A stretch of DNA of 59,113 bases, the filler included, from Globobulimina sp. (lineage: Eukaryota): NCBI GenBank assembly GCA_003354225.1. It is 9 parts of 9 records of this genome, joined end to end, with 100 filler letters (N's around TTAATTAATTAA, not from the genome) between each part and the next. Parts side by side here need not be neighbours in the genome. Positions count along the whole stretch, not along the records: positions 19,823 to 26,310 come from PIVH01000286.1; 8 more parts are not named here. One strand, written 5' to 3'. The notes under the pieces are model-generated. The model was not told the DNA's origin. It made no database searches and saw only the letters and a program-made list of their open reading frames with translations. The translations under genes were made by a program, and so were the position numbers. Positions 1 through 37,100 of the stretch are shown here, in pieces; the stretch's first letter is position 1, and each line of letters starts with the position of its first letter.

Positions 1-362
1 CCTCTTTAATGCTGCTAATTTGAACCGAGTATATTCATTATCGGTATTGAAGGTGGGATCTATATCGGCGGTTTCATGGAGCCATAATAACATTGATTGT
101 GCTTGGCGAATACAGTTACAATTATTAACTTGTTGGATTCTGTCAGCAATCCAAAACAGTGCAAGGGAGGGATAAGTAGGCAATTGAAACGGATTCACTT
201 TCAGTGTGACGCAGTAAAATACCCAATTTCTTAAGTGGGAGATATACTGTACTTTAGTGCCGGTACATTTGTCCAATGTATTAGTCTCGACAATAAATTC
301 TGCGGTCTTCGGGCGTGTTTGCGAGAGTGGGTGCGTTCGAGCGAAGCGAAGTCTGTACCAAG
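1..362 (-). CDS. Tyrosine recombinase N-terminal domain (partial; not in the ORF track)
   Basis: Manual translation is open to base 1: WYRLRFARTHP...KCTGTKVQYISHLRNWVFYCVTLKVNPFQLPTYPSLALFWIADRIQQVNNCNCIRQAQSMLLWLHETADIDPTF. This fits the T..Y...W..FC/P/H pattern of DIRS YR N-termini and lies directly after RNase H. There is no start ATG; the frame follows a TTAG acceptor at 366-363. Confidence 0.7.
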
Positions 363-440
363 CTAACAGTTTTTGTAAAATAAACACATTTTTGTAAGGA
401 AGTAATGGCAAATTTAAAAGGAGAAAAGAAAAACGGATAT

Positions 441-2206
441 TCAATCCAATTTAAAATTGGAGGCATAATTAGGATATCCAATTCTCGCTCGCTCCTTCAA
501 AGGTAAACAGAGAAAAGAAATGAAATCATTGTATTCTTCTAAGTCATATTGGTCATCAAATGGATTATTGGGATTATTGATTTGGTGATTCAGGAATTTG
601 AAATCATCAAAGTACATTGTTTCTGTTTTAGCTCTGGTCATATTGAGATTAAATTGATTGACAATGGACCAGAATGTATCTAACTTATTACGGGACAAAG
701 CATCGGATAATCCATTGGTGGATGAAGAAATCCAGTCGATCAAAAATTTGTATTCGAGCATGAGATGACATAATTCGTATACAAATAGCATCATATTATA
801 GGATGAAGACCATTTACGTTTGATGGCATAAAAACAGGTCTCATTATCAACAAATAAATGGATAGTTTTACCCGTTAAATAATAGCGGAATGTAAATAAT
901 GCGGAGAGGATCACATGAGCCTCTTTTTGGTTGATATGCCAATTATTTGTATGGGATTCATTAAATGGATAAAACGACCAATATCCACCCAACACATAGC
1001 CACCATGGGATTGAGAGGCATCGGTTGAAGCAGAAATGCTTATTTTTCTGGACATTAATATTTCGGACATTGGTACTTTTAAGATTTGGTCAGCATAAAA
1101 GTACCAATATTTCAAGTCATTCAATATGGAGAGGGGCAATATGAAATTGTGATTTTTGGGATATTTCCCCGAACGGATATTTTCATAGATAAAATGGAGC
1201 AAATTCCAGCATAAAGCCTTTGTAGGTTGCTTCAACTGGGCCCAGTGCATAATTGTACCGCAGAGGGATTCCAATGCAGCTCCAGTAATGACGCGATATT
1301 GCAATGTGTATCGGATCAACTGTTTGAAGTTACGGTATTTAATCGGTGGTATACCAATGAACTTATTTTTCAAATCAAAGAAGATGCCATAAATTACTGC
1401 TGTTTGGCAAGTCCGAATAAAGCCAGACTCCTTTAACGATACTTGAACATTTAGTTCTTTCATAAGAGCATCGAATCGTTTCTCCATTTCAATACAATCG
1501 GCTTCTTTCACCGCCGACAGAACAAAGTCATCGATATGAACCAGGGTTTTATTCTTCCACTGATGATCAAAGACTTTGTTATCCAAAATCCATATTAAAA
1601 CCTGGGCGAAGTACTGGCAGTTCGCCGGAGCAGAGGAGACTCCATATGGTTGTTTTCTGTCTCGCCATACCAAACCAAAGAGGGAGTAACAAATATAATT
1701 ACTGTCTTCCTCACACAGTCCGATTTGGCGAAAGAAGTCCGAAAGATCGCGAATTGCAAAGAAATTACAATCAATCAGGGTCTTTATATAGAGTTTCAAG
1801 TTGGGGAGAGATGGAATCTTGCATTTTATTGGGCGGATCAGTTCGTTGATGGAAGAGGTTGATTTAGTTTTAAAGGATCCGTTTCTGATTACTCTGAATT
1901 TGGTGTAACGGCCCTGTCCGTCTTTCTTAGGGGTACAGAAAATCATTACCATATATTCAGGTTTACCGAAAAATGGCTCAATTTGGCCATTTTCAGCCTC
2001 AGAAATCATTTTATCTAAAATGGCGAGAGCTTCTTGAGGTGTATTTGCAATGTTAGATATCTTCGTTGATAAACGATTATGAATGACATGTGTGGCTTTT
2101 TGCTCTTCCGCCTGAAAATGTGTCTTGAGCCACAGAGGAAAGCCAACAGTAATCCATTTGATATCGGACTTTCCTTTTGGTTTCCCTTGGAGATACTGGG
2201 CGAATG
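441..2206 (-). CDS. Reverse transcriptase + RNase H (DIRS-type Pol)
   Basis: RT motifs FAIRDLSDFFRQI, QPYGVSSAP, LVHIDDF; RNase H motifs STDASQSHGG, HINQKEAH, FVDNET, TNGLSDALSR. No ATG at the start; the frame follows an acceptor (ttgccAG at 2208-2207). Confidence 0.92.
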
Positions 2207-2220
2207 CTGGCAAATTAAAT

Positions 2221-2299
2221 TAACACACAAAAAAACTCGAGTCGTACTCTAAATAAAATTCGAGTCGTACTCTAAATAAAAGTAACACACAAAAAAACT
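2221..2299. repeat. Nested direct repeats between Gag and RT of element 1
   Basis: TAACACACAAAAAAACT at 2221-2237 and 2283-2299 enclose two copies of TCGAGTCGTACTCTAAATAAAA (2237-2258, 2260-2281). Confidence 0.85.
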
Positions 2300-2472
2300 A
2301 CTTTAGTAAAATGTAGCACAGACACCATGGGAACGGAGGTGGTGAGAATCTGGTGTGTTATCTAACGGTGTTACTGAGAAATCGATGCTAACATAGAAGT
2401 AAATATTTAGTTAAATGGGTCCTATTATAATAAGGACAAATATTAAATAGAAAGGAAAGAGGATATAATGGG

Positions 2473-3523
2473 TTAGAATTTAATTTTGCTGAATTTGTCA
2501 ACATATTTCTTATATATATTAGGTTTGGATTTGGCAGTGTCGCATGCTTTAAACGAGTGACTTTTATCCGGATGGAATGCACATCGGTGTTTATAATATG
2601 CATCGGGCGACGGTTCACATTGATTCTTTGGATTTGTACATAAATCCAATCCAAAAAAGAACATACAAATGTCACTAGGACATGTTGTGCCATATTCGGT
2701 AACACATTCATGTGTCGTTCGCCTTAATAAACGTAAGTTATCTTTGGTTGGATTGGCAGTGTTAACCGGCCGATTATTGGGTCGATTATTGTAATTATTA
2801 GGCCGATATGTCGGTCTTTTATTATTATGGCGATTGTTACTGTTGGAATTGCGATGTTCGGCAAATTGTTTATTAAAATGAATTGTTTCATGACCGGTGC
2901 GATTATTTCCATTTTGGGGCCAGTTATAATGTGGTTTTTGGTCAATGTAAACATTGAATTTCTTAGTTTTTTCGAATTCATCCAATTTAAATTCATTAAA
3001 TGTGCTTAAAAGGAATTGGATGATATTGGGTTTGGAGGTATTATCATTAAATGATTGCGTAAATGAATTATAATCCATCAAAAGACAAATGGGGACATTG
3101 TGGATAAGATAATATTGTAACAATTTTATGTCCAGAATCCCACCACATTCCAATATGGTTTTTTGGCAAATTGCTGGATTTTCTGTCCAAACAAACGAAG
3201 GTTAACTTTGACCATTTGGACCCATCCAATTAATAAACGGACATATTTGGAAGGAATGGAGGAGGAATTAATAGCGGATAACGCAAAATCCATGGTGTTA
3301 TTCCATGCGGTCAATATGTAATAAATAGGATGTTTTGATTTGAACGCAGCATGGATCTCCTTCGAAGGTGAGCTGATATCGGATATAACATATTCAGTAG
3401 ATAGAAATGTCAGAGTGGAATGCAAAAATGAAGGAATATCGACGTGGTCAGCGGTAGCAAAGCCAGTGAAGAAACGAATAACTTGGTTTCTGATTTTCAC
3501 TTTCTTTTTCGAAATAGTATTCA
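2473..3523 (-). CDS. Gag-like protein with C-terminal Cys/His zinc-binding cluster; split by a one-base frameshift
   Basis: ORFs 3524-3126 and 3153-2473 join if one A is added to the A6 run (plus-strand T6 at 3159-3164). The C-terminus CMFFFGLDLCTNPKNQC..HRCAFHPDKSHSFKAC follows an N/R-rich linker, as in YR-retrotransposon Gags. Confidence 0.7.
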
Positions 3524-4077
3524 CTATATAGTTTGTTGTGAGTTATTTAAAGAGATAAATGTGCGTAGAATATGCTGACCGTATCAATTGTTTCTGATAA
3601 ACGCTATGTACATAAATGGATTTCTTGCATTATTTTGCATACAGAGGGCATTTGCTTAAACGTGTTATTATGTACATAGAAGATATAGGAGAGAGTAATA
3701 GAATTTGCGTAAGTATACAATATGCTTAGTTTGAAATAACTCATAATCGATATGCAAAAACTGTCCAGTCTAAAAAACGAGTGGACACTTTTTGCACTAA
3801 AACTACTCATAATTGAGTATACGATTTGCGTAAAGGAGAATATGCATAGCAAAGAAAGAAGAAGGCAGAGAAACACCGTTACTTAGGAAATGAATCCAAG
3901 AATGAGAAAGGCTGTGTCATTCTATGCTGTACAGAGACCCAGCTGCAGTACCGTGCATTTCATGAAAGTCAACCGATCACACCTCAAAGAAAGCGTTTTC
4001 GAAAAGGAGCCGGGAAGTTTCAGTGGAAAAGTGATTGATTTTAATTATGTAAACACAACAATTAAAATACCACACAA

Positions 4078-6279: not shown

Positions 6280-6521
6280 ACGGGATGGTATATACTAAAA
6301 TGGTATATGCACACTGTCCAATCAATGGTTTGTTGACGTTCGAGGCTCGTTGCTGTTTTATGTGTAGTCGCTACCTACAAAAAGAAAATGAAAGAAGACG
6401 AAGAAGAGAGAAGTTTTAGTGAACTAAAGATAAATAATAAAACAAAGTAAGATGAAACGCACTTTTACATTTTATGAATCATAACACTGCGTTTTATTTG
6501 TAAACAAATAAAACTCCGAAT

Positions 6522-6621
6522 NNNNNNNNNNNNNNNNNNNNNNNNNNNNNNNNNNNNNNNNNNNNTTAATTAATTAANNNNNNNNNNNNNNNNNNNNNNN
6601 NNNNNNNNNNNNNNNNNNNNN
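6522..6621. other. Artificial contig spacer (N-TTAATTAATTAA-N); equivalent spacers at 13131-13230, 19723-19822, 26311-26410, 32884-32983, 39451-39550, 46014-46113, 52567-52666
   Basis: 100-nt N blocks with an all-frame stop linker; contig lengths fall monotonically from 6521 to 6447. Confidence 0.98.
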
Positions 6622-12631: not shown

Positions 12632-13697
12632 TTAGGCGAAACCTCAAGTTGACATTAGACTATGTCCAACTATGTCTACTTCAGTTATGTCTAAATTAAG
12701 AGGATTGCTACTCTATTGCCTCTACTGTCTCGTCATATGGTTTATAATTCATTTGAAAATACCAAAACAAAAGCATATAAAGACAGATATTTTGAATCCC
12801 GTCAGTTACAAGTAAGTGCGTCACCTCCTCAGTAAATTCACTCTAAAACTTTTTCTAAGCATAATGACAAAAACTTCACTTCCACTCCTCTCTCATCTTC
12901 CTCCACCATGTGACCGGGAATCCGTCACGTGTAAAGATCCTTTGGATCATCACTTTTAGGCTCTGGTCGGTACGTTGCAGGCAGATCATAACTGCACAAC
13001 TGTTGTTGCTGAGTAAGCCCGTTGGATTTTAGGCAGCTGTTCACGTGGGATATTATATGGCGTGTATAATTTTGAGACCGAAAATGCACGCCCAATGCAA
13101 TTGTAACTAATTTACACTGTGATTGGGACANNNNNNNNNNNNNNNNNNNNNNNNNNNNNNNNNNNNNNNNNNNNTTAATTAATTAANNNNNNNNNNNNNN
13201 NNNNNNNNNNNNNNNNNNNNNNNNNNNNNNAAAATTTGTGACGATTTGTCATTTGTGATTAATTGAAATAGAATGGAGTTTGTCACAATGTCACAATATT
13301 AACAAGAAATAAAATGGATTAAAAAAAAACAAAAGAAATTAAATTCCATAACACAAAAATACAGGTAAATACATAAAAATACATAAATCAAAGAAGAAAA
13401 TATATTCAAACATATTCAAATATATCAGTAATAAGTTAGTTGGTTCAATAATAGGATTAATTAAAAAATCCATGAAATAAAGTTGTTGATTAAATATAAT
13501 GATTAAATAACATATTCTTTAGGATGTGCGTTCGTTTTATATCATGAATTTTCCATAATGCTGCAAAAACAATTACGCAAAAGCCAAAATAACGAACATC
13601 GTAAAGCATAACATAACAAAAAAAATAAACTAAATCAAAATCATTTCATGAACAATTTATATACAAATACAAAGTACGGAATTCGAATTAAATTAAA

Positions 13698-14929: not shown

Positions 14930-17495
14930 ATGTCAAACGAAGAAGAATTTCAAGAAATTATTGCTGTGGTTGGATTTCTTGCAGTTGTTTGGATTTGTGG
15001 TCGATTATGCAAATTTGTAGAGTTATCTCCATTGATTGGATGGATTGCATCGGGTTTAATATTTGGGCCAAACGGACTGGCTCTAATTCCGAATAAACAT
15101 CAAGAAGTGTGGAGATTATTAGGTACATTAGGTGTAACTTTAATGATTGCGGAATCCGGAACGCATATTCACTTCGATAAAGTCCGAAAATTGGGTGTTA
15201 CGGCTGTATTGGTAGCATTAATCGGCACTTTCTTGCCACTCGCACTGGCATGTGCTCTCGGTATGTTTTTATTTAATTTTATTTAATTATATAAATAAAT
15301 ATCAAATACAAATAGTGTATGTAACGGGCTTTGGTTCCTTAAAAGAAGGATTCGCGACCGGCTGTGCCATGGCGCCGACCTCAGTCAGTGTTGCATTAAA
15401 ATTATTGTCTGAAGCAAATCAATTAAACTCATTACCCGGACAAACTATTGTAACTGCTGCCTTTTTAGACGATGTATTTTCAATTATTTTATTAGTGATA
15501 TTACAACAATTTGATAATAATAATACTTCTCCATCTCCATCAACATTAAATACAATATTTGCAATAAGCAGTAAATTTGTGTTTTGTTTTTTATTTTTAT
15601 CGATTGGTGTAATTCTGGCAATGTATGTTTTTAACGAAATTATTCCGAAGTGTTTACATTTTATGCCGTCGTATGATAATATAAATTATCAGCCGCGCGA
15701 CGAGATGCATTTGATTATAATGATAGCGGTGTTGGCGAGTTATTGCTATGTCGGGGATAAGATTGGCAGCCATTTGTTAGGCGCCTTTATCGCAGGAATG
15801 TCTTTCTCGCAAATCAGTCGCTCGATGTATGTGTGGCGCAGACAAATGAAGCGAGTGTGCCAATGGCTGATCAAACTGTTCTTTGCGTGTTCCGTGGCGT
15901 TCACCATTCCGACGCAGTCCTTATTAAAAGTGGAAGCCTTTGCTTATGGCTTATTACTTTCGTTTGTATCTGGAATTGTGGCTAAAATGCTCTCTGGATT
16001 TGCCACCCGCTCCTCTTATAACTATGTGGTTGGCTTCGCCATGGTTGGTCGCGGGGAGTTTGCCTATTTGGTGGCGCAAAAAGCAAAAGAATGGAAACTC
16101 ATTTCTTCCGATTTGTATGCCATCATTGTCTGGGCCTTATTGATCGCAGTGATTGTGGCGCCCATTGCCTTTGGTTTTGTGCTCCGAAAAGCATTTAAAA
16201 AAGAAGTCAAATCGGGAATAAAATGGTTTACCATTCGTGCCGAAGCTAAACATCACACCGGCGTCCATTTCGAAATTGTGGATGTTTTACATAATTTAAA
16301 ATTGGATATTTTAGAAGCAAAGGTAGAGACTGACGGAGATACCGATTGTTCCGAGTTCATTGTTGGTGGCGGTGCCGACTTTTTAGATAAAGATAAAATG
16401 TATGAAATATTACATGATATTCGCGAGGCAGTGGGAGATATAAACCACGCACAAGTTCAATTATTACCAATTGATGAAGTACAATTGGATGAGTTGGATG
16501 AGGATGAATCTTTTATTGAGTTGGATGTCGATGATTTATTAGAAATTAAGTTAATGAGCAAGCATTCGCCACAAATATTTGCCAAATTAATTGAAGAAAT
16601 GGAGTTAAATGGGATTCAATTAATTCGTGGACATTTAGATAATTTTTTAAACACAGACTCGCAAGTTATATTTGGTAAACTATCGGCACTCGCAAACACT
16701 ACGCAGAATAATACAGATTGTCGAAATATAAAAAGTAAATTAAAAAAAGTCTTCGAAATAAATAACATTTCGGCAGAAATGTTATGTAAAAAAATTAGTA
16801 GAGATGTCGCCGTATTTCCGCACCATACTAAATTTAGTGAGTTATTGCAATCGGCGACAAATAAATATAATCCAATGTTAAGTAATAAGTTTGAAAATGG
16901 ATACGAGATTGAGATTTATTGCGAGTGCTATGTTTGCCATTTAATATTATCGATAACGTCAGTCTTTGAATTGTTAGACTTGGACATTAGAACAATAAAT
17001 ATCCAAATAAATGAAGAGAATAACAAATTTAATTCAACTTTTTTCCTGCAAGAAAAGAATAATAATAAAAATAGAAGAAGTATTATTGAAGAAGAGATAG
17101 CGAAAATCTTTGAGAGCAGCAACATTGCGGCAAGTATCAAAACAAAAGAAATTGAAATAGGTCAAAAAGCATTGGATTTAGATAACAGTTTGCATAGTTT
17201 GCAGATTGCGACGTCGAAACTAGCATCGCCATCGATATCTGTGTCTGCCTCTGCTGGCTTGCAAAACTTAGCGGCAATCACCCAAAGTACTGTCATTATA
17301 ACACCCAACAGTTTAAAAGCTCCGCTGCCGCCATCAATCGAAAAGGGGGAAACAATATTTAATTTGATTGGTTTACTGGACAATGGCGATGTGGACCGTA
17401 TTGAAGAAATTAATGACAAATCAAACCCAGATCTAGACATTGCAGAGAGTCAAAGTAGTAGCACAATTCTTGATATTCTCAATTGTAAATTGTAG
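14930..17495 (+). CDS. CPA2 (KefB/NapA-like) cation/H+ antiporter with C-terminal ACT-like domains; intron 15261-15315
   Basis: Motifs APTSVSVA, AAFLDDVFSIILL, HLLGAFIAG, MVGRGEFA. A phase-1 GT-AG intron joins ORFs 14930 and 15252 in frame. The tail has ACT-like repeats (HHTGVHFEIVDVLHNLKLDILEAKV). Confidence 0.85.
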
Positions 17496-18936: not shown

Positions 18937-20144
18937 CAATTTCTTTTCTTTTTTTTTTGTGATGAATTTCTATGTACACTGTGTGCTTTATCATTTTTTG
19001 CCATTCTCGATAGCCACAAATCTCCGATGATTTAGTACTGTTAAACTCAAGTAAACATTTGAATAATACTCATGAACAAAAAATATCCGCAAAAATTAAA
19101 AAAAAAGAAATGGATTATTTCGAAAAAAAAAACAAAATTGAAATAAAAAGTAAAAAAAGACAATATATTGGTAAACAACAAATCATTTTTGTGATTTTCT
19201 CTGCGTGGCTCTCTATTTAAAATCACAAAAACATACAAAAAAAATACATTGCATTTTCATCACCACCTCAATGTTTATTAAATGCATTCATTCATTCAGT
19301 CAATCAATTTAATAAAACACCACAAAAATACAAAAAAAATTTATAAAATAATTAAATTAAGACAAAACAAAAAAAAAGAACATAGAAAAAATAAAAGAAG
19401 GAAATATTTTGAGAAAAAATTAGAAAAAAATAATTAAAAAAAAAGGGGGTTATTACAGTGGTAGAATATGAGAGTTGTGGGGCATAATCATTTTGGGTTT
19501 TGGTTTAATTTTAAGTGGTTGCATAATTTGACATGATTTATCATCAAATGCTTCTAAAACCGGATGAATACAACGCGTGGGATCTAATAATAATTTATCA
19601 TATGATTTAACAGCAATTAACCAGTTCAATTTAGTTTTGACGACAATTTTGTCAAAACCATAATCTTCCAATAATATTCGAAAAGAAATAACTTGTTTGT
19701 CATCCTGCGCATCAATACCAAANNNNNNNNNNNNNNNNNNNNNNNNNNNNNNNNNNNNNNNNNNNNTTAATTAATTAANNNNNNNNNNNNNNNNNNNNNN
19801 NNNNNNNNNNNNNNNNNNNNNNACAGTCGATAATGTTGTGTATGATGAAGGATATGGCATTTCAGGTCGATTATTAATAAATTGTGTTTGTAAAAAAAAA
19901 TTAAATAAAAATGAAAGAATATTTGCAGGCAGTCGAACACTTGAGACTTCCAAGGTTATTGTGGTCGGAACGAAGAAGTTGAATTCTCTGATAAGTTACT
20001 ACCTTGCACTTCAGTCTTCATCAGGAATTAAAACCTTCTTCGTCCCTAGCTTTATTTAAACAATTGCCTGCGGCAACAGCTAGTGCCGATTCTGAAACTC
20101 TACATATCCTTCCTTCCCCATATAGATCGTGGTCGTTTCCCGTG

Positions 20145-21545
20145 ATGACAACTCGAACACAGCAGAGCCAGTCCAAGTTGCGATCGAATACGAAGAAGAA
20201 ACGAGACAAACCCGGCTTGTCGAATAATGAGACGGCGATATTTGACGTGGTACGGGATTTGTGTATTGATCCATATTATGTTGATGAGCGATGGGATTTG
20301 AAGGATGATTATTTAGGGTATCCCGAGGATGTCGCGATGCCCTCTGAGATTGCCGAGCTTTGCGTTGCCGGTAATACCAAGACAAAGAAGCGATCACAGC
20401 GTCGCTTATCAGTAACAATGCCGGGCGATCTTGATTTCCCGGTGAATCAGAAATGCCTTAGTTGCAAAGGCAATACGTTCAGAAAGATGGGTGGGGGCAT
20501 CGCGGGGAAGTTGCGTGCGATTCCTGCATTTTATGAATGCGATGCTCGTGGCATTCTTGACGCCCATGCTGATCATACGTGGTGTCCGCATTGTATCCGC
20601 GGAATGAGTACAGTCAGTCCTTGGACCGACGCCGAATACTATTTCCCTGCGTTATATTCCAGGATTGCTGATGAGAAAGAAGCGATGGACACCCACGGTG
20701 CCAGGATGGAGCCCATGAACGTTGATACAAAGGTTGTTACCGGAGGCAAACCGGAAACGACCGACAACGATTCGCGAGAGAAGCAAACCAGTACCAAACC
20801 AATAGCAATCCGAACCAAGAATGATAATCACAACCATAAGACAGAGATGGACGGTGATGCGGATGATGAGACCGATGATGATAATGACTTGGCTATGTTG
20901 GAATCGTCCGGCTTATTTGAGGTGACACCATTGCAACCAACGCCATTTGATGATATTGTTGAGGATGCCTTGCATTATATAAATACAACAGCGTTGGATG
21001 TGGTTGATATGGCCGTGGTTAAGAAGAAAGTTAAGTGTGCTATCAAGCAGTTCAAAGTTGAGACGCCTGGGAAGTATGACGAGGCAGTATTTGAGCGTCG
21101 CTCTGGGGGCATATTGAGCTGTGTCCGAATTTTGAGGGATGAGTTGAATGCCACAGCCAGGAGTGTTGAGAGTCGAAGGAAGGGGGATCGCGGTGCCCGA
21201 GACCGTCAGCGCAGCGCCGCCACCATGCAATCTAATGAGAAGAATAGGAAGAAGGCACGAAGTCGTTCCCGAAGCCGGAAACGCTCCGTGACCGATGACG
21301 CAGAGCCTCTCGCTATGCGTATTCCGAAACGTGACGTGCAGCCCGTTCGCAAGCCCGATAAGAGAGCCGCCAAAACCAAGACTACCACGACACGACGCAA
21401 ACGAACAGGTACACCGAGTACGCCATCGAAGGCAGCGGACCATGATAAAGTATGTTTGTATGAAATCTTGCCCCGTTGCTCTTGCTTGCGTCAGAAACGT
21501 CAAACTGTTTCAGTTTTGCGTTTCTCACTGGTGTTAGGTGTGTGA
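20145..21545 (+). CDS. ORF1 of element 2 (Cys/His cluster, acidic and RS/K-rich segments); probable donor at 21450
   Basis: First in-frame ATG at 20145; KCLSCKG...FYECDA..HADHTWCPHC; GATAAA|GTATGT donor, after which the frame reads like intron sequence. Confidence 0.7.
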   Translation: MTTRTQQSQSKLRSNTKKKRDKPGLSNNETAIFDVVRDLCIDPYYVDERWDLKDDYLGYPEDVAMPSEIAELCVAGNTKTKKRSQRRLSVTMPGDLDFPVNQKCLSCKGNTFRKMGGGIAGKLRAIPAFYECDARGILDAHADHTWCPHCIRGMSTVSPWTDAEYYFPALYSRIADEKEAMDTHGARMEPMNVDTKVVTGGKPETTDNDSREKQTSTKPIAIRTKNDNHNHKTEMDGDADDETDDDNDLAMLESSGLFEVTPLQPTPFDDIVEDALHYINTTALDVVDMAVVKKKVKCAIKQFKVETPGKYDEAVFERRSGGILSCVRILRDELNATARSVESRRKGDRGARDRQRSAATMQSNEKNRKKARSRSRSRKRSVTDDAEPLAMRIPKRDVQPVRKPDKRAAKTKTTTTRRKRTGTPSTPSKAADHDKVCLYEILPRCSCLRQKRQTVSVLRFSLVLGV

Positions 21546-21738
21546 GTTTGTTGCACACTTTGGATACAAAGAATACGTCGATTGCATAGTTAGCCGATAA
21601 GATTTCGGAGCAATCAGTGTAACGTGGCATACATTGCATAGTTAGCCGGTTAAGTCTCGGGGCAATGTGCGCGAAGTGTTGGTATTGCACCAACTGTGTT
21701 AATAATGGTTACTTTCTCTCTTTGTCTGTAATGATTAG

Positions 21739-22722
21739 GTAATGCGAGGAATGATGCATGGCGATGACCGCAAACAACGTCGCAAGAAACAAACATCCGC
21801 GGCAACAGTGACTGCCGCCATTCCGGAGATAATACCGAGACCGACTGCAGTGCCATCGGACAGCGGTGACGAATCCAGCGACGCTTCTGACTCCTCCGGA
21901 TCCTCTGAGGATGACAGCGATGATCATGACACCGACACTGTCGCACAAAAAGGATGCCTGGAAACTGCGAGAGATGACACCGTTCGGAGAGAATCCAAGA
22001 AGTTGCTGAAAAAGCACAATAGAGCGAATAAGTTCAGAGTGTCACAGCAAATATTCAGGAAATGGGCGAAGGAGCCACCGCATCAATTTGGTTTGAAAAA
22101 GGCAGTCGTTGAGACTGCGAATGATAATGTTGCATTTAACGAGATTTTGGCGAAGATGCCCGACATTAATATGTCCAGTGAAGTCATTTTGGCTTTACTG
22201 AATAAATTGGTCAAGATAAAAATAAAGGAATTCAAAACAAATGAAGAGAAGCTTCAATTATTGACTGATTTGGTGAATTTGAACGATCATTTATTTCATT
22301 TATTTTATCATGATACAAAGGATGAGTTAGCACCAACGATATTGGCTTATTTGGATAGTGAGGAGTTTGAAATAGAAACATTTTATACGGATATTATGAA
22401 GGAAGTTACAGCATTGCATATACAAAAAAGGGAAAGTCAGCATTGGTTCTTGGATAATTTACCCAAATTGACGTTTAAAAAGACATTGTGTTCATATGCC
22501 ACATCCAAGAAAGATGGCTGTACTTTGAAGAGCTGTACAGATAATAAAATGAAGTTGCATGTACGGCTATGGCCGTTTGTATATCAAAGACCTCGGACCC
22601 ATAATAATAATTATAACAATAGAGGCGAGCAGTCCGTTAATAATTTTAGGAATCGACGAGGCGGTTTCCGTGGAGGTTTCCGTGGAGGTTTCCGTCGAGG
22701 AAGAGGCAGAGGTAGATATTGA
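21739..22722 (+). CDS. Gag-like ORF2 with a C-C-C-H cluster and C-terminal RGG repeats
   Basis: Frame opens right after an in-frame TAG (21736-38) preceded by a pyrimidine tract; LCSYATSKKDGCTLKSCTDNKMKLH; RGGFRGGFRGGFRRGRGRGRY. Confidence 0.72.
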   Translation, partial: VMRGMMHGDDRKQRRKKQTSAATVTAAIPEIIPRPTAVPSDSGDESSDASDSSGSSEDDSDDHDTDTVAQKGCLETARDDTVRRESKKLLKKHNRANKFRVSQQIFRKWAKEPPHQFGLKKAVVETANDNVAFNEILAKMPDINMSSEVILALLNKLVKIKIKEFKTNEEKLQLLTDLVNLNDHLFHLFYHDTKDELAPTILAYLDSEEFEIETFYTDIMKEVTALHIQKRESQHWFLDNLPKLTFKKTLCSYATSKKDGCTLKSCTDNKMKLHVRLWPFVYQRPRTHNNNYNNRGEQSVNNFRNRRGGFRGGFRGGFRRGRGRGRY

Positions 22723-22946
22723 TGAAATAACTTCAATAAAAATTGTGTTGAGCATTGCTCAGTTTATTCTTTCTGTCGTTGTTGGGTTTTTCATGCGTTC
22801 TATTTAATACTTTATAGTTCTTTTGTTTGTTGATTGGACACACAACTCGCACACATCTATTTATAGATAAACACATGACATTTCGTTCTAAAATGTCATG
22901 TTTTGCAGCTGCATTTACTCATAATCGGTTATGCTTTGTTTCTTAG

Positions 22947-24803
22947 GTCGCCGAGCAGGAACGTTTAAAAAATGAGTGGTTGTTGAAGTTACGACGGCTA
23001 AAACAAAAAACCGAGATACACCGAAAGTATTATGACACCAAAAAGTGGCGGGCGAATGCCACTAATCATTGTTCCAAAATTGAACTTGAGAAATTGTTAA
23101 TCTCACTAGAAGTTGGGGTTGATTTAGGTTTTGATATGATACATCCGCCTGAACCACGCCATTTAGTCCGTAATCCGCCAGCTGACCCCCTAACTAGTGT
23201 TGGTTTGTCTGAAACAGTTTTTAAATGGTATAGCCGCGGCCAGATTTTGGGTCCGTTTACAAAAGCGGAAGCGCAGAAATTAGGGGTCACTGTTAGCCCC
23301 ATACACGGGGTACCAAAACCAGATGGTTCTGTAAGGCCGGTGATAAATCACTCGTTCCCGAAGAAACGCTTTCATACATCTGTGAATGGGAACATTGATG
23401 ACGAATTTTGCACAGTGCAATATGTTAATTTGCGGTCAATCATCGCAACTGTACAAGGTGAAGGAAAAGGTGCTTGGGTTTGGACCCGTGATTTGGAGGA
23501 CGGATATTTTAATTGCATTCCTCAGAATAACCAAATGAAGTTTCTTGCGTTTTCTTGGGCAGGAATGGTATGGATCCCTACTGTGATGACGTTCGGCTTA
23601 AGTTCCGCCCCTCAAATTTTCACCAATTTCATGAAAACTCCCTTGAAAGCAATCCGTATGATGAATCCAGATATTTCCTATCGTCCCATACAGCCAAATC
23701 TTGATCCAAAGTTGTTTGACATTCTCTTGAAAAATGAACCAGATAAAATGTGTGATAGTGTCTCCGCATTTTATCCATTAATTCGTAGCTATGTGGATGA
23801 CATCATTGGTGTCCATAAGAGCCCATCCATCGCAGCGCAACAATTTGCGAACGCCGGCACCAAGTTAAATACATTGAATTTATCACCAAAGTTGAAAAAG
23901 GATCAATGTCCAGGGCAGGCTTCTATTGTTTTAGGTGCTTTGTTGGATACAATAAAGCAAAAAGTATTCCTCCCTGAGGAGAAACGGAAACGTTATATCG
24001 ATGACATCAATGAGGTGATTTCAATGAAACGGATCCATAAATCCCGTTTGTTTACAATCATCGGCCGTGCACGGCATAGTGCACAATTCTTGAGGCCATT
24101 ATCCATATTAGCACGCAATTTGGATGCCTTTGTGTATGCCAGTCCACCCACCAAACAATTTATTGACATGGATAATAACTTACGCGCCGACCTTGATTTC
24201 TTGAAATGGGGCATAGAGCATGCTGCCACAGTTGGATGTTCCTTTGACTATGCAATAAAACCTGCGGATTCAGCAGACATTGAAGGATTTACAGATGCTG
24301 CAAAAGTACATGGCGGTGTGGGTGGTTTCTTAAGCGAAACAGGAGGGAGTTGGTTCCAATGTCATTGGGACAAAATTCAAATGACGAATCCACAGAATCG
24401 CGATATCCAATGGAGAGAAATGGTCGCGGTTTATACTTTATTGAAAGTGAATAAACAACGCTTAAAAGGAAAAGCCATTACGATTTGGTGTGACAATGAG
24501 CCCGTTTGTTGGATGATAAGTAAGTTCAGGGCGACATTATCGAGACCTGACTTACAATGCGTACTTCGAGAAATTGGACGGTTTTTGATTGAGAATGAAA
24601 CTCATCTATGGATGGAACACATTGAAGGTGTCACTAATGTCACAGCGGATAATTTGTCTCGTTTTAAAGAAGATCCGCTCAAAGAATGTACAAAACGTTT
24701 AAAAACAAGACCGACCCGTTGCCATCGCGCGGTACAGCGGATTACCGATTTATGTCAAGATTACGAAATTGAACGACAATATTTAGTTCCTAGAAAGACA
24801 TAA
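22947..24803 (+). CDS. Reverse transcriptase + RNase H (DIRS-type Pol)
   Basis: SPIHGVPKPDGSVRPVINHS, WTRDLEDGYF, MTFGLSSAPQIF, SYVDDIIG; RNase H FTDAAK, DIQWREMVAV, WCDNEP, HIEGVTNVTADNLSR. The frame opens after tttcttAG at 22946. Confidence 0.95.
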   Translation, partial: VAEQERLKNEWLLKLRRLKQKTEIHRKYYDTKKWRANATNHCSKIELEKLLISLEVGVDLGFDMIHPPEPRHLVRNPPADPLTSVGLSETVFKWYSRGQILGPFTKAEAQKLGVTVSPIHGVPKPDGSVRPVINHSFPKKRFHTSVNGNIDDEFCTVQYVNLRSIIATVQGEGKGAWVWTRDLEDGYFNCIPQNNQMKFLAFSWAGMVWIPTVMTFGLSSAPQIFTNFMKTPLKAIRMMNPDISYRPIQPNLDPKLFDILLKNEPDKMCDSVSAFYPLIRSYVDDIIGVHKSPSIAAQQFANAGTKLNTLNLSPKLKKDQCPGQASIVLGALLDTIKQKVFLPEEKRKRYIDDINEVISMKRIHKSRLFTIIGRARHSAQFLRPLSILARNLDAFVYASPPTKQFIDMDNNLRADLDFLKWGIEHAATVGCSFDYAIKPADSADIEGFTDAAKVHGGVGGFLSETGGSWFQCHWDKIQMTNPQNRDIQWREMVAVYTLLKVNKQRLKGKAITIWCDNEPVCWMISKFRATLSRPDLQCVLREIGRFLIENETHLWMEHIEGVTNVTADNLSRFKEDPLKECTKRLKTRPTRCHRAVQRITDLCQDYEIERQYLVPRKT

Positions 24804-24944
24804 CTCTGTTTTTTTGTGATTGTTTTAAATTATTTAAATATAACAACAACACTTAGCAACAACAAACAAAACATATACACACAACTCACTTAAATAAATA
24901 CACATTTGCTATAAATAACTTGCTTGAATAACTTGCATATATAG

Positions 24945-25985
24945 TTCGCCAATGAAGATAATACCGCTTACGCATTAGGCATTGCAGCCGATGCTAAACG
25001 CACTAAGAAACATAATAGCGACTATTTGAGATATTATTTCAAATTTTGTAAGATTAAGGAGATCGAACCCTTGGATTTCACACCAATAACACCTGAGAAA
25101 TTAATGGGTCGATATTTAGGTTGGTTGTATTGGGAGAGAACATTCCAAGATAAAGACATACCGCATGGCGTAGCAAAAGTATGTCTAACCGCTGTCGGCA
25201 AATATTGGAATGACAATGGAATCACTTGGGTCGCTAAACATCATCCAGCAATACGCAGGAAATTGCTTGGCTATAAACGCTGCAGACCCAGCTTGAAACG
25301 ATCCAAACATCCATGGAGTCTCAAACATATGCAGTTTGCATGTGATATTTTACTGCGAACAGAAACCTTGATATCCCTCACTTTGGCTGGTTGCTTGGCC
25401 ACTGGCTATTGGTGGGGATGCCGAGTAGGTGAATATACCTCCAGTCCTGCTTCCGTTGCAATGGATGATATCCCTTTACGTTATAAAAATCTCCAATGGT
25501 TTTATAATAATGATAATGAATTGATATCCGTTGCTATACGGATTGATAAATCCAAATGTAACCAACATAATGATCGATTGGAATTGATGCCTGTTGATTG
25601 TACGTGTAAGCAACATGGCACGTTAACATGTGGTCCACATATCCTTCAACGTCTATGTCTGTTAAAAGCAACATTGAAAGGGAGACCGTTAAAGAGAAAT
25701 GATTTGATTTTTGAAAAAGCAAAAAAGACAGCAATGACACCTGATTGTGTTAATAATCTATTGGATAGCATTGCGTGTAAAATGGGATTGGATGGCACCA
25801 AATATAAAAGTCATTCGTTACGAATCGGCAGAGCGACCGATTTAGCCCGATCCAATACTCCTGATTATAAAATTGCAAAATGGGGACGATGGACTTCAGA
25901 TTGTTGGAAACGAATCTACATTCGTTTGAATTTCACAGACTTAGCGAAATTATCCAATACATCAATTGACAATGTACGTAGATGA
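24945..25985 (+). CDS. Tyrosine recombinase
   Basis: Catalytic residues present: GCRVGEY (R), DKSKCNQ (K), SHSLRIG (HxxR), KWGRWTS (W), RIYIR (Y). The frame opens after atatAG at 24944. Confidence 0.93.
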   Translation, partial: FANEDNTAYALGIAADAKRTKKHNSDYLRYYFKFCKIKEIEPLDFTPITPEKLMGRYLGWLYWERTFQDKDIPHGVAKVCLTAVGKYWNDNGITWVAKHHPAIRRKLLGYKRCRPSLKRSKHPWSLKHMQFACDILLRTETLISLTLAGCLATGYWWGCRVGEYTSSPASVAMDDIPLRYKNLQWFYNNDNELISVAIRIDKSKCNQHNDRLELMPVDCTCKQHGTLTCGPHILQRLCLLKATLKGRPLKRNDLIFEKAKKTAMTPDCVNNLLDSIACKMGLDGTKYKSHSLRIGRATDLARSNTPDYKIAKWGRWTSDCWKRIYIRLNFTDLAKLSNTSIDNVRR

Positions 25986-26110
25986 TAACTGTGCAGTCAG
26001 CACGACTGTCCCATTGCTTGCTAAGTAAACACTTGTTGTTTTTTACATTTATTTTCAAAAACTCGACGACAAAAACACGTTTCTCAAGCGAGATATAGAA
26101 AAGATATAAG

Positions 26111-26274
26111 TATACGTTGGGGTAATCGCCAGATCCTTAGGATCTATTGATTTCGGTGGTCGAAGATTTGACAACCAATTAATTTATTATTTTGTAGAAT
26201 TATGAACAAATAATAAATTATTGATTGATCTCATCTTTGGTTTAGATCCTACTGGCATTACCTGCAAACGTGTA
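26111..26274 (+). other. Long imperfect rod-like hairpin in the 3' terminal region of element 2
   Basis: TATACGTT/AACGTGTA, GGTAAT.GCCAG/CTGGCATTACC, TAGGATCTA/TAGATCCTA, CAACCAAT/ATTGATTG, AATTTATTATTT.GT/ACAAATAATAAATT. Confidence 0.75.
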
Positions 26275-26410
26275 AAAACGTTGACCAACATTTCTTGTAT
26301 CTTTTATTTANNNNNNNNNNNNNNNNNNNNNNNNNNNNNNNNNNNNNNNNNNNNTTAATTAATTAANNNNNNNNNNNNNNNNNNNNNNNNNNNNNNNNNN
26401 NNNNNNNNNN

Positions 26411-28390
26411 TCTTTTGCCGTATGCTAACTTGGATGGAATCCATAATTTTACAATTGAGCCAACTTTAATTCGTGTAACAGCTTGTTCCAATCCTTTTAT
26501 ATTCTGTTTTTTGCCCAATTTGATCACTTCTCTGTGTTTTATAAATTGTTTCCCGTCTGGTAAATGTCCGGTATATTCAATTTCCACTGTCGACGAAGAA
26601 CTTGGTATATCACCAATTCCTTGCCGTATTATTTCAATATCAATCATCGACTTATCTTTTTTTTTATTTGTTGTTTTTTCTAGATCTGCCGGCTGCTTTT
26701 TCTTATATTTATTAATTCCTTTTAATACGTCATTGTTATATGATCGTACAGGTTTTGGTGCAGGTGGTGGTACAAGCGGTTTTTTCTTAGATTTCTTAAT
26801 GTCTTTCAATAAGTCAGCCCTGTTGTTATATGATCGTACCGGTTGTGGTGCAGGTCGCGGTATAGGTGGCCATGGCGGCGGTACTTTTTTCGCTGTCACC
26901 TTTTTTTTCGCTGTGTGTTTGGGTGACGCCTTTTTTTTAGCAAATAATCCACCCAATGCAGCTGCGGCAGCTTTCTGTGAGGGACCAGTCGATACACCAC
27001 CAGCCTTACTGGGTACAGAGGGTGGTACAGATGATACTTTTGATGCACTTTGATGTTGCTGCTGTTGCTGTTGTAACTGCATTTGTGGCTGAATATTTCC
27101 ATAAACATGTTGCTGAACACTCGCAATCGCTTGTTTTTCTGCCTGTTGTTTTTTCTTATATTCATCAATTTGTTTTTCATATTCTTTATATTTCCGCAAG
27201 AATTTACGTGAATGTCCCTTGGAAAAACCCAAATCGTTTCTTAAATCATCCTCTGTTAAGTCCTTCCAATCCACCACATCGTCCCAGCCTTCATCTCGCA
27301 TTTTGGCCGCAAACTGCCCCAAACCCCACTCATTTAATAAAGTTTCATAATTCTTCAATTCCGGATTATCTGCGTCTTTTGCCTCATCCCCATAGCCATT
27401 ATTATTGCCGTCTTTATATATCTCATCACTTCCAATCTTTGGTCGAATATGTTTGGTCGCATAATTATATGCTAAATTTGTGTCATTTTGCTCAAATAAC
27501 CTCGCTTTCTTATACATAGAATGTGAGATTGCTTTGAAATTATAAAAGACTTTGTGATGGAGCTGAACCTCGCAAACAATTTTGCAGTTTGGACAATATA
27601 TATTTATCAACAAATCCCTATAACCAAACGGCATTTGTTTCGGACTAAATCGGTCTTTAACCCGTAGGATACCACCCACTTCTCGGTCGGCTAAGCGTTC
27701 AATAATTACAAAAGTTTGGTATAAGTCGTCAAACGTTTCAAAAACAATGGAACATCGCAACACATCCGTCATTTGCTTAAAACCATCCTTTTGAAAATAT
27801 ACATAATATGCCTGTCAGATTAATGTATATTACACGTATACAAAGAACATGTTTTTAGGGTCGGTATGCGATGAAAAACAAATTAACTTAACTTTATAAA
27901 AGGCTCTTGCCATTTGTTTGGTTTTTGCCTTTGATGAAGCATAGATTGTAATGTTTTGTTGCTTACATTGTTGGGTTATTTTGTTTATAAATTTTTGGAA
28001 ATGGGATAAGTTTGATTGCGCTCTGAATATTAAATCAATGAAGGTATGGACTCCAGCATTTTTTGGTTTTGGTTGCTTGGAATATTTTGTGTCAATATAT
28101 CTGCAGTATTTGTTTCTTGCGTGTTGTTGTCTGGATTGGTACGGCATATATTGTTTATTGAATTTGTTTTCGATTAAGATGATATTATTTAAAAACTTAT
28201 TCAGTCCGGCGATGTCGTCCATGATTGATTTTAATATTTCTGTCTCGTTTTCCAGGGCAGTGTTTTTTGCCTCTTTTAATAGGTTTGGTTTTTCTGATTT
28301 TTGAATGGCTTTATTTACCTCCGGTTCTTTTTTTGACATTAAGTCAAAATAACCATTCATTACACCCATTAATTGTCCGATTCCTGATGC
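26411..28390 (-). CDS. Multidomain protein: RelA/SpoT-like nucleotidyltransferase + SAM + Pro-rich/WH2-like + FKBP (3' truncated; 5' end uncertain; intron 27892-27812)
   Basis: KTKQMARAFYK|AYY...MTDVLRCSIVF, RVKDRF, GYRDLLINI, CEVQLHH; SAM LNEWGLGQFAAKMRDEGWDD..DLTEDDL; RADLLKDIKK; FKBP VEIEYTGHLPDGKQF...GLEQAV...KLWIPSKLAYG. Confidence 0.75.
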
Positions 28391-34135: not shown

Positions 34136-37100
34136 ATGGCAAATAATGTCCATGTTGGTTTGCTATATTAATATTATCTTCATGCAGATGTAAAAATATA
34201 TTTTTTACAGCAATCAACAGAAATAGAACGAGCACGAGATAGACTCGAACGATTATCTTGGACAATTGGTTCAAAATGCATAGTATTTTCAAGTTTACAG
34301 AATGGCTGGTTTTTTGCTGAAATTATTAAAATACATAATGACGATGAAGGTGAATGGTTAACTGTCAAATATATGGATAATAATATTATCACAAAAAAAA
34401 TACAACGATTTAGTAAGGAAATATTACCGGTTTATCATGATAAAAATATTAAACCTAAATACAATAAATTAATCAATACAGATAAAAATGTTGTTATTCG
34501 AGCAATATCCGATGTATTGGATGCGGAGGAAATTAATCAAATTGTGAACAGAATAAATTCTGCAAAATCACAGGTTTGTTTCTCACAAAACATATAATTA
34601 AACACGAAAACGATATATATACTGTATACACTGTAGAAAGCACACGAAAGTATTTTGGAGACATTAGGTATTAATACAGATGAGTATGATATTGATGAAT
34701 TATTTGAGGCGGAGAATATCAAAAAAAAAGGTGATTGTTGCTTAGAGAGAGTGCGCTGTATCTCATTAATTTATTGTTCGTGGATTGATATTAAAAATGA
34801 AGAACGCAAAGATGAGAATGAAATTGATGACATTTTTGACATTATTAATAATTCATTATCCCAACAATACACATTTGCGAATTTCATCAAAGATTATAAA
34901 TTTATAATGAAAAATAAGCAAATTTTAGGTTTTGATGATGACGAAAAGAATACGAATAAGAATATTTGTGATGGCGATAAATGTTTTATTGGTGGCAGAC
35001 ATGAAAGGGATCGCGCACTTTTGTCAAAAGATTTATTTTTCAGTGCCGCCTTAAATGTATTTAATGATCACAACGATACCGATGCATCCATAAAATCAAT
35101 GGTAAGCCAGCAAATATTGGATTCGTGCCATTCTTTTTTATATCATACATTGCGAATAAATGTAAATCAAATTAGGAGGGAAATGGATAAGAAAGTGAAT
35201 GAGAATGATATAACAGACATGGATGAATTGTTACAATTATGTCATGATAGCGTAGCGGTTGAATTTCGAAAATATTTGGATTTAAAAAAAAAAGATGCGA
35301 GATATCGTATAAACGAAGAACGCGGCAAACAATTTAGTAAATTTGTAACGAAGAAAATAAATAAAAAATCAGCAACAACCGAATTGAATGAGGCAGTTAG
35401 TGGTGGTTTTATTGACGGATTAATGGAGGAAATGGGTAAATATCGAGTAAATAAAGCCGTAATGAATGATTTTTATACGTATTTAATGGATGAAGAGTGG
35501 GACAGCGATGCCGTAATTATGGATTATACAAATATTGATATTATGAATGATGATTTAATTAAATATGTGTTATGGCAGAATAATGACTCACTCATTCAAC
35601 AAATTTATAAAATATTGGCAAAGAAACATAATTCTAAATGTGATATGCAAATATTTGAGGATTATTTGACTGATTTTTTGAATATTAATAGCCAGTATTC
35701 ATCCGGCATTCGCTTCTTTTATTGGACATATTATAAACACATCACTGATAATGAAAATATTTTATACAAAAGAAAAGATGGCCAAAATAGGACAGAATCG
35801 AATATCGGATATCGTATTTGTGATTGGTACATTCCAGCCAAATATGCGTCATTTAAAGAGGAGATGCTTGAAAATGGCTTTTTTTTGGAACAATGGATGG
35901 AAACCAAAGAAAAAGCAACAATGAAATATCAAGTCTGGAAAGAAGATGAAGAGGAAATTACATGTGAATGGAGAGCACAAAATACAGCAAATAAGTATTT
36001 ACATACATATGGCATAAAAAAAGGTGAATTAATTAGAATGGATCATATAATGAGTATCCTTTTTTACACTAATTTTAGTGAGCAATCATTTAATTTCTCA
36101 GCCAGTTTCCGAAGAAATCAATGGAATGAATCGGATGTCTCATTTAAAAAAAGACATTCATGTTTCGCAAACTGGGCGAGATTATTAAGAGAAAGCATTG
36201 AATGCTATGGCACCAATATGTATTATTCAACAGTAGATATTTTTTATCATGGCATTGGTAAAGAATTTATATTTGAAGGCACTACTTTTAAAATATTTGG
36301 GCCTTTGTCTACCACTGCCGGTTTGACTTTTATTTTATTCATTATTTGTAAATGATAAATAATTAAACAGAGTTTGAAGTGGCTCATGGAAGATTTGCAA
36401 AGGATGATGGGATGGTGGTTGATATTCTAAATCTTAAATATGGACAGGCACTCTGGAATTGTGTGTTTTGGAGTGATTATCAAGAAGAAAATGAGAGATT
36501 ATTCGTGGGCTCATTGCAATGGTTTTATTTTAAATCAATTCATGATATTCCGCTGAAATTGGATTATGAAAAATTAATCCGACCCATATCTATGTTAAGT
36601 GAGATGATTCGTGGATATCCATTCAAACAATGTGCAATAAAGAATTGCGATGTTGTATGTGTTGCTGAATTAATTGGTTTGGGATTGGGATCACATTCAT
36701 CATCATCACAGACATTGAGTAAAATACCAATTTATATGCAAAGACTATTCAAAAATATGATTAATAATGTTTATAATGTTCAAATAAATATGTTTAATAT
36801 CAATAGACATAAAGAAGGTGCAATGTATAGTCAATATGGTTATTTATTATTTAAACCATTGTTTATCTCGTCCGAATGCATTATGTTTAGTAAAATATTA
36901 CATTTATTTAAACATAAATTGCAATATATTATTGTATATAATCTAATGAGACCTCCATCATTTGATAAATCAATCGAATTAAATCCATCATTTACATCAT
37001 CAACAATATCAGCCATAACAGAGATCAATGAATCAGGTAAATTACAAAGTACATTTAAAGAGATTATTATAGTAAATCCAATTAATAATATATCAACATT

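Follow-up and report, generated by a model that had tools for sequence, protein, structure and literature searches.

In a stretch of 59,113 nucleotides (nt) of DNA from Globobulimina sp. (GCA_003354225.1), referred to as a whole as the window, we found an element, element 2, that by its sequence is an intact-looking tyrosine-recombinase (YR) retrotransposon of ~6.1 kb with four separate, non-overlapping open reading frames (ORFs): ORF1, a gag-like ORF2, an ORF for reverse transcriptase (RT) and RNase H (together RT-RH), and an ORF for the YR. The anatomy of the element is real and unusual: the two enzyme ORFs have no start codon of their own and lie behind closed spacers. The translation of downstream ORFs in YR retrotransposons is poorly understood, and start-less enzyme genes behind multi-stop spacers force the question. 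The best single model that we can offer, and one that we hold tentatively, is alternative splicing from one donor at the end of ORF1 to three acceptors, one directly in front of each downstream ORF; whether splicing of some kind takes part appears about evenly balanced.

The preliminary description of this DNA had recognised a YR retrotransposon, had noted that its RT-RH and YR frames lack an initial ATG, and had observed that all three downstream frames open right after a TAG; each of these points was borne out, the last in both the sequence and the list of ORFs. Matches to Pfam were found for RT-RH with RVT_1 (E 1.7e-5; 25.1 bits, cut-off 29.6) and the RNase H-like RT_RNaseH (E 0.0078), both below the cut-offs, and for YR with Phage_integrase (E 1.8e-5; 25 bits, below the cut-off of 27.1). 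The relatives of RT-RH are 43-54% identical to it, and the YVDD motif and 59 invariant columns are common to the protein and 5 of these relatives; for YR, the recovered relatives P0020 (66-67% identical) and P0021 (37%) both align from residue 11 on, and all aligned sequences share HSLRIG and GRW. The RT-RH frame opens with GTC GCC after tttcttAG and has its first Met at codon 64, and the YR frame opens with TTC GCC after atatAG and has its first Met at codon 54. Conserved residues precede both of these: KYYDTxxWR and L.KL...L..G.DLG in RT-RH (relatives at 43-47% identity), and in YR the invariant A17, T20, Y31 and C35, with residues 11-53 conserved in P0020, which argues that these parts are translated. 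The three spacers (289 nt from the donor onwards, 224 nt between ORF2 and RT-RH, and 141 nt between RT-RH and YR) contain stops in all three frames, and the one between RT and YR contains no ATG in any frame. Given the missing starts and the closed spacers, it is well supported that RT-RH and YR require a non-standard route of expression.

Some such routes were considered and set aside. Frameshifting or read-through across the spacers is ruled out by the stops in all frames, and a series of introns, from ORF2 to RT and from RT to YR, by the lack of a phase-0 consensus donor near either ORF end (the end of ORF2 has a single donor-like site, G/GTAGAT at 22712, which is in phase 1; here and below a slash marks the splice position). 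Exact copies of the 11-mer ACACACAACTC occur in the 59-kb window at two places only, upstream of the RT and of the YR acceptor; an internal promoter at this motif is unattractive, as the next AUG downstream runs into a TAG for RT and is out of frame for YR. An Rfam scan returned only a chance-level match (E 0.1).

According to the splicing model, the full-length RNA would be translated into ORF1 plus a tail of 31 residues, and a share of the RNA would be spliced from the single consensus donor at 21449/21450 to the AG that closes the TAG before ORF2 (21738), RT-RH (22946) or YR (24944). Each downstream protein would thereby receive from ORF1 its AUG and an N-terminal stretch of 435 residues, and the outcome would be a splicing-based counterpart of a Gag-Pol fusion. 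The use of these candidate sites, their pairing and any control of product ratios we infer; acceptor choice might conceivably set the ratio of the proteins. The fuller proposal, in which the gag-like protein, RT and recombinase are made as three alternative in-frame ORF1 fusions and only the unspliced RNA bears the repeat pair that resides in the first intron, a possible mark of the genomic copy, strikes us as rather doubtful.

Several features bear on the donor. The site at 21450 is the sole match in all six positions (6/6) to GTATGT, GTTTGT or GTAAGT that occurs in phase 0 within ORF1, and, from the 9 GT[AT]TGT hexamers on the plus strand of the 6095-bp element, chance would place ~0.05 phase-0 sites within the final 100 nt of the ORF1 frame. 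The donor's phase counts as independent evidence, with a 1-in-3 chance. The composition changes sharply at the site: over the 60-90 nt that lead up to 21450 the fraction of T is 0.05-0.08, and beyond it 0.37-0.40. We collected host introns from all contigs by ORF continuity, that is, as GT[AT]NGT...AG pairs that restore long frames, and all five (5/5) have a GTATGT or GTTTGT donor, which makes the donor at 21450 one of the host type; they are 52-63 nt long, AT-rich and without a marked pyrimidine tract, and their 3' ends read ATAG, GTAG, ACAG and GCAG. The acceptors were ranked by the pyrimidine content of the 17 bases before each of the 361 AGs on the contig (ranks in Table 1). All three downstream frames open at a TAG, as do 4/22 of the other long ORFs of the window (7/25 of the ORFs of at least 200 aa in total), and acceptors 2 and 3 share AG/KTCGCC, to which the window has 4 matches against 0.92 expected, two of them being these acceptors; the 11-mer ACACACAACTC upstream of both is a further feature in common that speaks for the model. 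That the pattern of TAG, AG and donor is pure chance seems unlikely; it was noticed after the fact.

The coordinates that had been given for the AAA/GTATGT donor proved correct; the frame behind it, which had been said to read like intron, is T-rich, and the joins of 21449 to 21739, 22947 and 24945 are in frame as claimed, all in-silico fusions reading through. The statement that all sites are in phase 0 stands as to the letters, but is circular for the acceptors, where the AG is the end of an in-frame stop TAG and the phase follows by construction. The conservation of the splice sites among relatives, which had been put forward as a check, could be followed in part: HDK/VC is kept across the donor site in P0019 at the protein level, but the comparison of DNA is limited to one decayed locus of 2168 nt (L001) from a metagenome scan, scans of genome contigs and of viral contigs having given none. 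P0019 (148 aa) is the only relative of ORF1 recovered among 1.84 billion representatives of all lengths, and its identity to ORF1 is 52% across residues 313-448. To both sides of HDK/VC, conservation is weak; VC is the peptide encoded by GTATGT, and the tail of ORF1 has some likeness to P0019 too (L..C..CL), so that the conservation may reflect a conserved peptide instead of a donor. No fused ORF1-RT form was found among the RT matches of 339-1082 aa, and the ORF1 search gave only the 148-aa protein; spliced fusions are not expected there, since the protein libraries are mostly derived from DNA.

ORF1 itself has a basic, Arg/Ser-rich C-terminal part and no family match in Pfam; a search of the ESM Atlas gave nothing usable, and an AlphaFold2 single-sequence model (mean pLDDT 44.3) was too poor for a fold search. 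Its GC content is 0.50 (0.58 in the last 300 nt), against 0.39-0.42 in the remainder of element 2. ORF1 might be a module of separate origin. The AG with the best pyrimidine tract of all 361 on the contig is found at 20125 (CCTTCCTTCCCCATATAG/), 20 nt upstream of the ORF1 ATG. ORF2 is likewise without a Pfam family above threshold; no homologues were found in the range of 179-573 aa that was searched, the ESM Atlas gave only scores under 0.9, and the model (mean pLDDT 43.5) was again too poor for a fold search. The predicted RNA fold of the region 21546-21738, which includes the repeat pair, is not unusual (z 0.06), and neither is that of 22860-23040.

Various observations weigh against splicing from ORF1 to all three acceptors. 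With lengths of 289, 1497 and 3495 nt, the proposed introns exceed those of the host 5- to 60-fold, and closer acceptor-like sites exist: a CAG ending at 21494, with a strong pyrimidine tract (rank 14/361), would give an in-frame intron of 45 nt, and a TTTCAG ending at 21513 would give a host-size intron of 64 nt, followed by a stop after 7 codons. The pyrimidine rank of acceptor 3 is only 139/361. ORF2 opens with GTA ATG and thus has an ATG of its own at 21742, one codon past the AG and in fair context. A second AAAGTATGT, also in phase 0 and with its 9 nt identical to the region of the ORF1 donor, lies at 25176-25184 within the conserved YR motif AKVCLTAVGKYW (AKVCL), so that the motif alone is insufficient to mark a used donor. 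To our knowledge, YR elements do not encode a protease, and a fusion with 435 extra residues would therefore have to work uncleaved. Among the relatives, two RT gene calls start at alignment columns 14 and 20, and three YR gene calls begin with M at codon 11, which is TTA here; if these M codons are genuine ATGs, translation starts independently in the relatives. Lastly, no consensus donor occurs near the end of ORF1 in element 1, the second YR retrotransposon of the window.

The most serious competitor, which we nevertheless consider fairly unlikely, accepts the donor of ORF1 but pairs it only with a nearby acceptor (21494, 21513 or, with the 289-nt intron, that of ORF2), and has RT-RH and YR made by non-AUG or internal initiation or by AUG-free reinitiation. 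AUG-independent reinitiation is used by LINE-1 ORF2. The size of the host introns, the 64-nt distance from 21450 to the TTTCAG, the pyrimidine tract before 21494 and the ATG of ORF2 all fit this explanation, and in-frame near-cognate codons are available (ATT at YR codon 13, TTG TTG at RT codons 12-13). These near-cognate starts are weak, however; the 64-nt intron runs into a stop and the 45-nt intron only trims the tail, so that neither accounts for the start-less enzyme ORFs, and the TAG openings of the three frames and the shared AG/KTCGCC are left unexplained.

The gene calls of the relatives bear on a further explanation, which we regard as unlikely: that this copy, or the majority sequence that was assembled, is non-autonomous, the starts of RT-RH and YR having been lost and the splice-like motifs being due to chance. 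The M that three YR relatives have in place of TTA, the chance GTATGT inside YR, the post hoc nature of the pattern and the failure to find the terminal repeats expected of YR elements are all in line with such a loss. Two independent losses would be required, however, in ORFs of 618 and 346 codons that are otherwise open and conserved, and the X1 DNA contigs that cover element 2 show no alternative letter at 24975-24977. The missing start also looks family-wide: the RT gene calls P0002, P0008 and P0012 start past the conserved N-terminal block, and in the P0021 cluster of near-identical members 4/6 start 22 residues further in, which implies that the M at codon 11 may be a pick of the gene caller. 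The relatives' calls may come from a prokaryote-type caller that accepts TTG and GTG as well, which we assume here. Taken together, these starts suggest that the lack of an early start codon is common across the family.

It is also conceivable, though quite improbable, that the AGs are true acceptors with a 5' exon other than ORF1, such as a trans-spliced leader or an upstream or host exon, yielding one mRNA per ORF as in the processing of a polycistron. With the AG at 20125 counted, an acceptor-like site precedes all four ORFs, as such processing would have it; RT-RH and YR would still be without an AUG unless one were provided by the end of the leader, host genes of the window begin with an ordinary ATG, the stretch 20062-20144 contains no donor-like site, and no leader sequence is known for the host. 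For RT-RH alone, read-through of the TAG at 22944 from a small ORF that starts at ATG 22875 is very improbable: ATGs 22875 and 22893 are in the RT frame with no stop until that TAG, which closes them and has the context TAG-G, but they lie within a perfect 11-bp hairpin and internal to a long RNA, no unusual structure follows the stop (z -0.44), and YR has no equivalent, its spacer being devoid of ATGs.

Ngaro-like elements consist of gag, RT/RH and YR in that order and have no methyltransferase domain. Element 2 agrees with the Ngaro-like/PAT-like elements (order DIRS) in having an ORF in the gag position, RT-RNase H before YR, no methyltransferase match between these and no target-site duplication, and can be placed in the Ngaro-like subgroup by architecture only. 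In particular, Pfam gave no methyltransferase match in the RT-RH ORF, no integrase-like ORF was found on the contig of element 2, and a distant relative, P0007, carries PF05869. The subgroups of YR retrotransposons, the Ngaro-like one included, are named in passages of PMC6681497, according to which the elements contain three long ORFs, those for YR and RT/RH being "frequently extensively overlapped", and carry either inverted terminal repeats (ITR) with an internal complementary region (ICR) or split direct repeats. Unlike these, element 2 has four ORFs, the additional one being the 435-codon ORF1 of no known family; its ORFs are not overlapped but set apart by spacers of 141-224 nt that are closed in all frames; and searches for split direct repeats and for ITR/ICR revealed neither.

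The splicing model can also be compared with viruses and with other retroelements. Retroviruses use one major 5' splice site and several acceptors, foamy-virus Pol is made from its own spliced mRNA, and in rice tungro bacilliform virus (RTBV) splicing joins ORF IV in frame with a short leader ORF. Shared with the retroviral and pararetroviral systems would be a single upstream donor with acceptors just before the downstream genes, an upstream exon that provides the AUG (as in RTBV), and the restriction of the region 21450-21738, with its two 34-nt repeats, to unspliced RNA, where it could mark the genomic RNA. In contrast to these systems, the donor of element 2 would terminate a coding exon of 435 codons instead of being part of a leader, a large N-terminal module would be common to all products, there is no protease, the host introns are very short, and the element is known here from DNA alone. 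The long terminal repeat (LTR) retrotransposons copia and BARE produce a gag-only mRNA by splicing; there, as in the model for element 2, splicing sets the amounts of structural protein versus enzyme, but it removes pol to raise Gag, whereas in element 2 no enzyme would be made without it. Full-text searches on DIRS/Ngaro elements listed no paper whose title or abstract describes splicing native to a YR retrotransposon; the passages on splicing in PMC7192593 concern engineered marker introns, those in PMC6681497 trans-splicing of host genes, and those in bioRxiv 10.64898/2026.05.21.726589 methods. If the model is true, element 2 would be the first YR element with a demonstrated need for splicing to express its enzymes; a mode of expression like that of retroviruses would have arisen independently among YR elements, and the case would illustrate a way for an element without a protease to couple its enzymes to a structural module. 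If the enzymes are made without splicing, element 2 points to AUG-independent initiation, which is itself of interest.

Table 1. Position of the features of element 2, element 1 and the rest of the window (a slash marks a splice position; ranks are by pyrimidine content).
Feature	Position	Strand	Remarks
Contig holding element 2	19823..26310	+	6488 bp, between artificial linkers
Putative element 2	20062..26156	+	6095 bp; ends from one X1 joint and composition
ORF1, proposed shared 5' exon	20145..21449	+	435 codons; first ATG past putative 5' end
Candidate 5' splice site GTATGT	21450..21455	+	AAA/GTATGT, phase 0 in ORF1
Unspliced ORF1 tail	21450..21545	+	T-rich; 31 codons, then TGA at 21543-21545
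Two 34-nt direct repeats	21581..21666	+	82% alike; present only in RNA retaining first proposed intron
Candidate acceptor 1	21737..21738	+	tgattAG/GTAATG; rank 20/361
ORF2, gag-like by position only	21739..22722	+	RGG repeat at C-terminus
11-mer ACACACAACTC, copy 1	22838..22848	+	98 nt before acceptor 2
Perfect 11-bp hairpin (ACATGACATTT / AAATGTCATGT)	22873..22901	+	44 nt before RT acceptor; spans ATGs 22875 and 22893
Candidate acceptor 2	22945..22946	+	ctttgtttcttAG/GTCGCC; rank 6/361
RT-RNase H ORF	22947..24803	+	618 codons + stop; YVDD at 282-285
11-mer ACACACAACTC, copy 2	24877..24887	+	57 nt before acceptor 3
Candidate acceptor 3	24943..24944	+	cttgcatatatAG/TTCGCC; rank 139/361; like AT-rich host acceptors
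Tyrosine recombinase ORF	24945..25985	+	346 codons + stop; HSLRIGR and GRW...Y motifs
Element 1, second YR retrotransposon	contig 1, 6294..1	-	within 1-6521
Element 1 ORF1	ATG 6279	-	733 codons
Element 1 ORF2, split	3542..3126 and 3201..2473	-	
Element 1 RT	2219..441	-	
Element 1 YR	450..1	-	runs off contig
Host intron	15261-15315	+	55 nt, GTATGT...ATAG; joins two Na/H exchanger parts
Host intron	34574-34636	+	63 nt, GTTTGT
Host intron	45592-45538	-	55 nt, GTATGT
Host intron	44970-44919	-	52 nt, GTTTGT
Host intron	43759-43698	-	62 nt, GTTTGT
Linkers	6522-6621, 13131-13230, 19723-19822, 26311-26410 and four others		N runs

The window consists of nine contigs of ~6.5 kb each that are joined via N44-TTAATTAATTAA-N44 linkers, and because this joining is artificial the neighbouring genes in the window are not genomic neighbours of element 2. 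The boundaries of the element were taken from its composition (GC 0.39-0.50 within, against 0.28-0.33 in the flanks) and from one X1 DNA contig that joins 20061 to 26157 without shared letters and with a shorter side of only 26 letters; cautiously, we take this joint to represent the site without element 2, which gives an element of 6095 bp with a leader of 83 nt. No target-site duplication is present at the putative ends, and no terminal repeats, inverted or split direct, were found by repeat search, by blastn-short or by local alignment against shuffled sequences. Such an absence is odd for the order DIRS, and the true ends may lie elsewhere or outside the contig.

Of three runs compared with the window, X1 alone covers element 2, in the form of DNA contigs. 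The 47 X1 contigs over the element show a spread of similarity (20 at least 99% alike, 8 at 95-99%, 7 at 90-95% and 12 lower) that fits a repeat family, and the intact ORFs together with the 20/47 contigs in the highest class fit a young, working one. The joints seen in these contigs were 20061>26157, 22926>22869, 23516>23771, 24622>24693 and 24622>25104; none of the 47 has a joint at a predicted splice junction, which is uninformative either way, as contigs drop rare forms. At the hairpin on the RT side, the joint 22926>22869 goes back 58 and is accompanied by loose ends; the family copies may differ or fold back at 22873-22901. The AT-rich 5' flank of element 2 contains, at 19886-19928, a host-like intron of 43 nt (GTTTGT...TTTGCAG), and this flank may represent the 3' terminus of a host gene oriented like the element.

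Element 1 resembles element 2 in being a YR element with a large ORF1, long spacers, and RT and YR without an early Met. It differs in that the RTs are only 22% identical, the ORF1s are unrelated, and its RT and YR overlap by 10 nt. The first AG past each of its three downstream frame openings is in the same phase, and the only donor candidates that match this phase are GTACGT at 5918 and GTATTT at 4370; these sites were chosen after looking, and therefore carry little weight.

The other contigs contain ordinary eukaryotic genes with long, mostly uninterrupted ORFs and a GC content of ~0.30-0.39, including a TIP120/CAND1-like ORF of 1266 codons, a Na/H exchanger, IPT/TIG repeats and a PAP2-FAD oxidase. 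On the minus strand at 26411-27814 there is a host ORF of 483 codons, which by eye resembles a protein with one FKBP-like and one RelA/SpoT-like end, proline-rich repeats and a SAM-like stretch.

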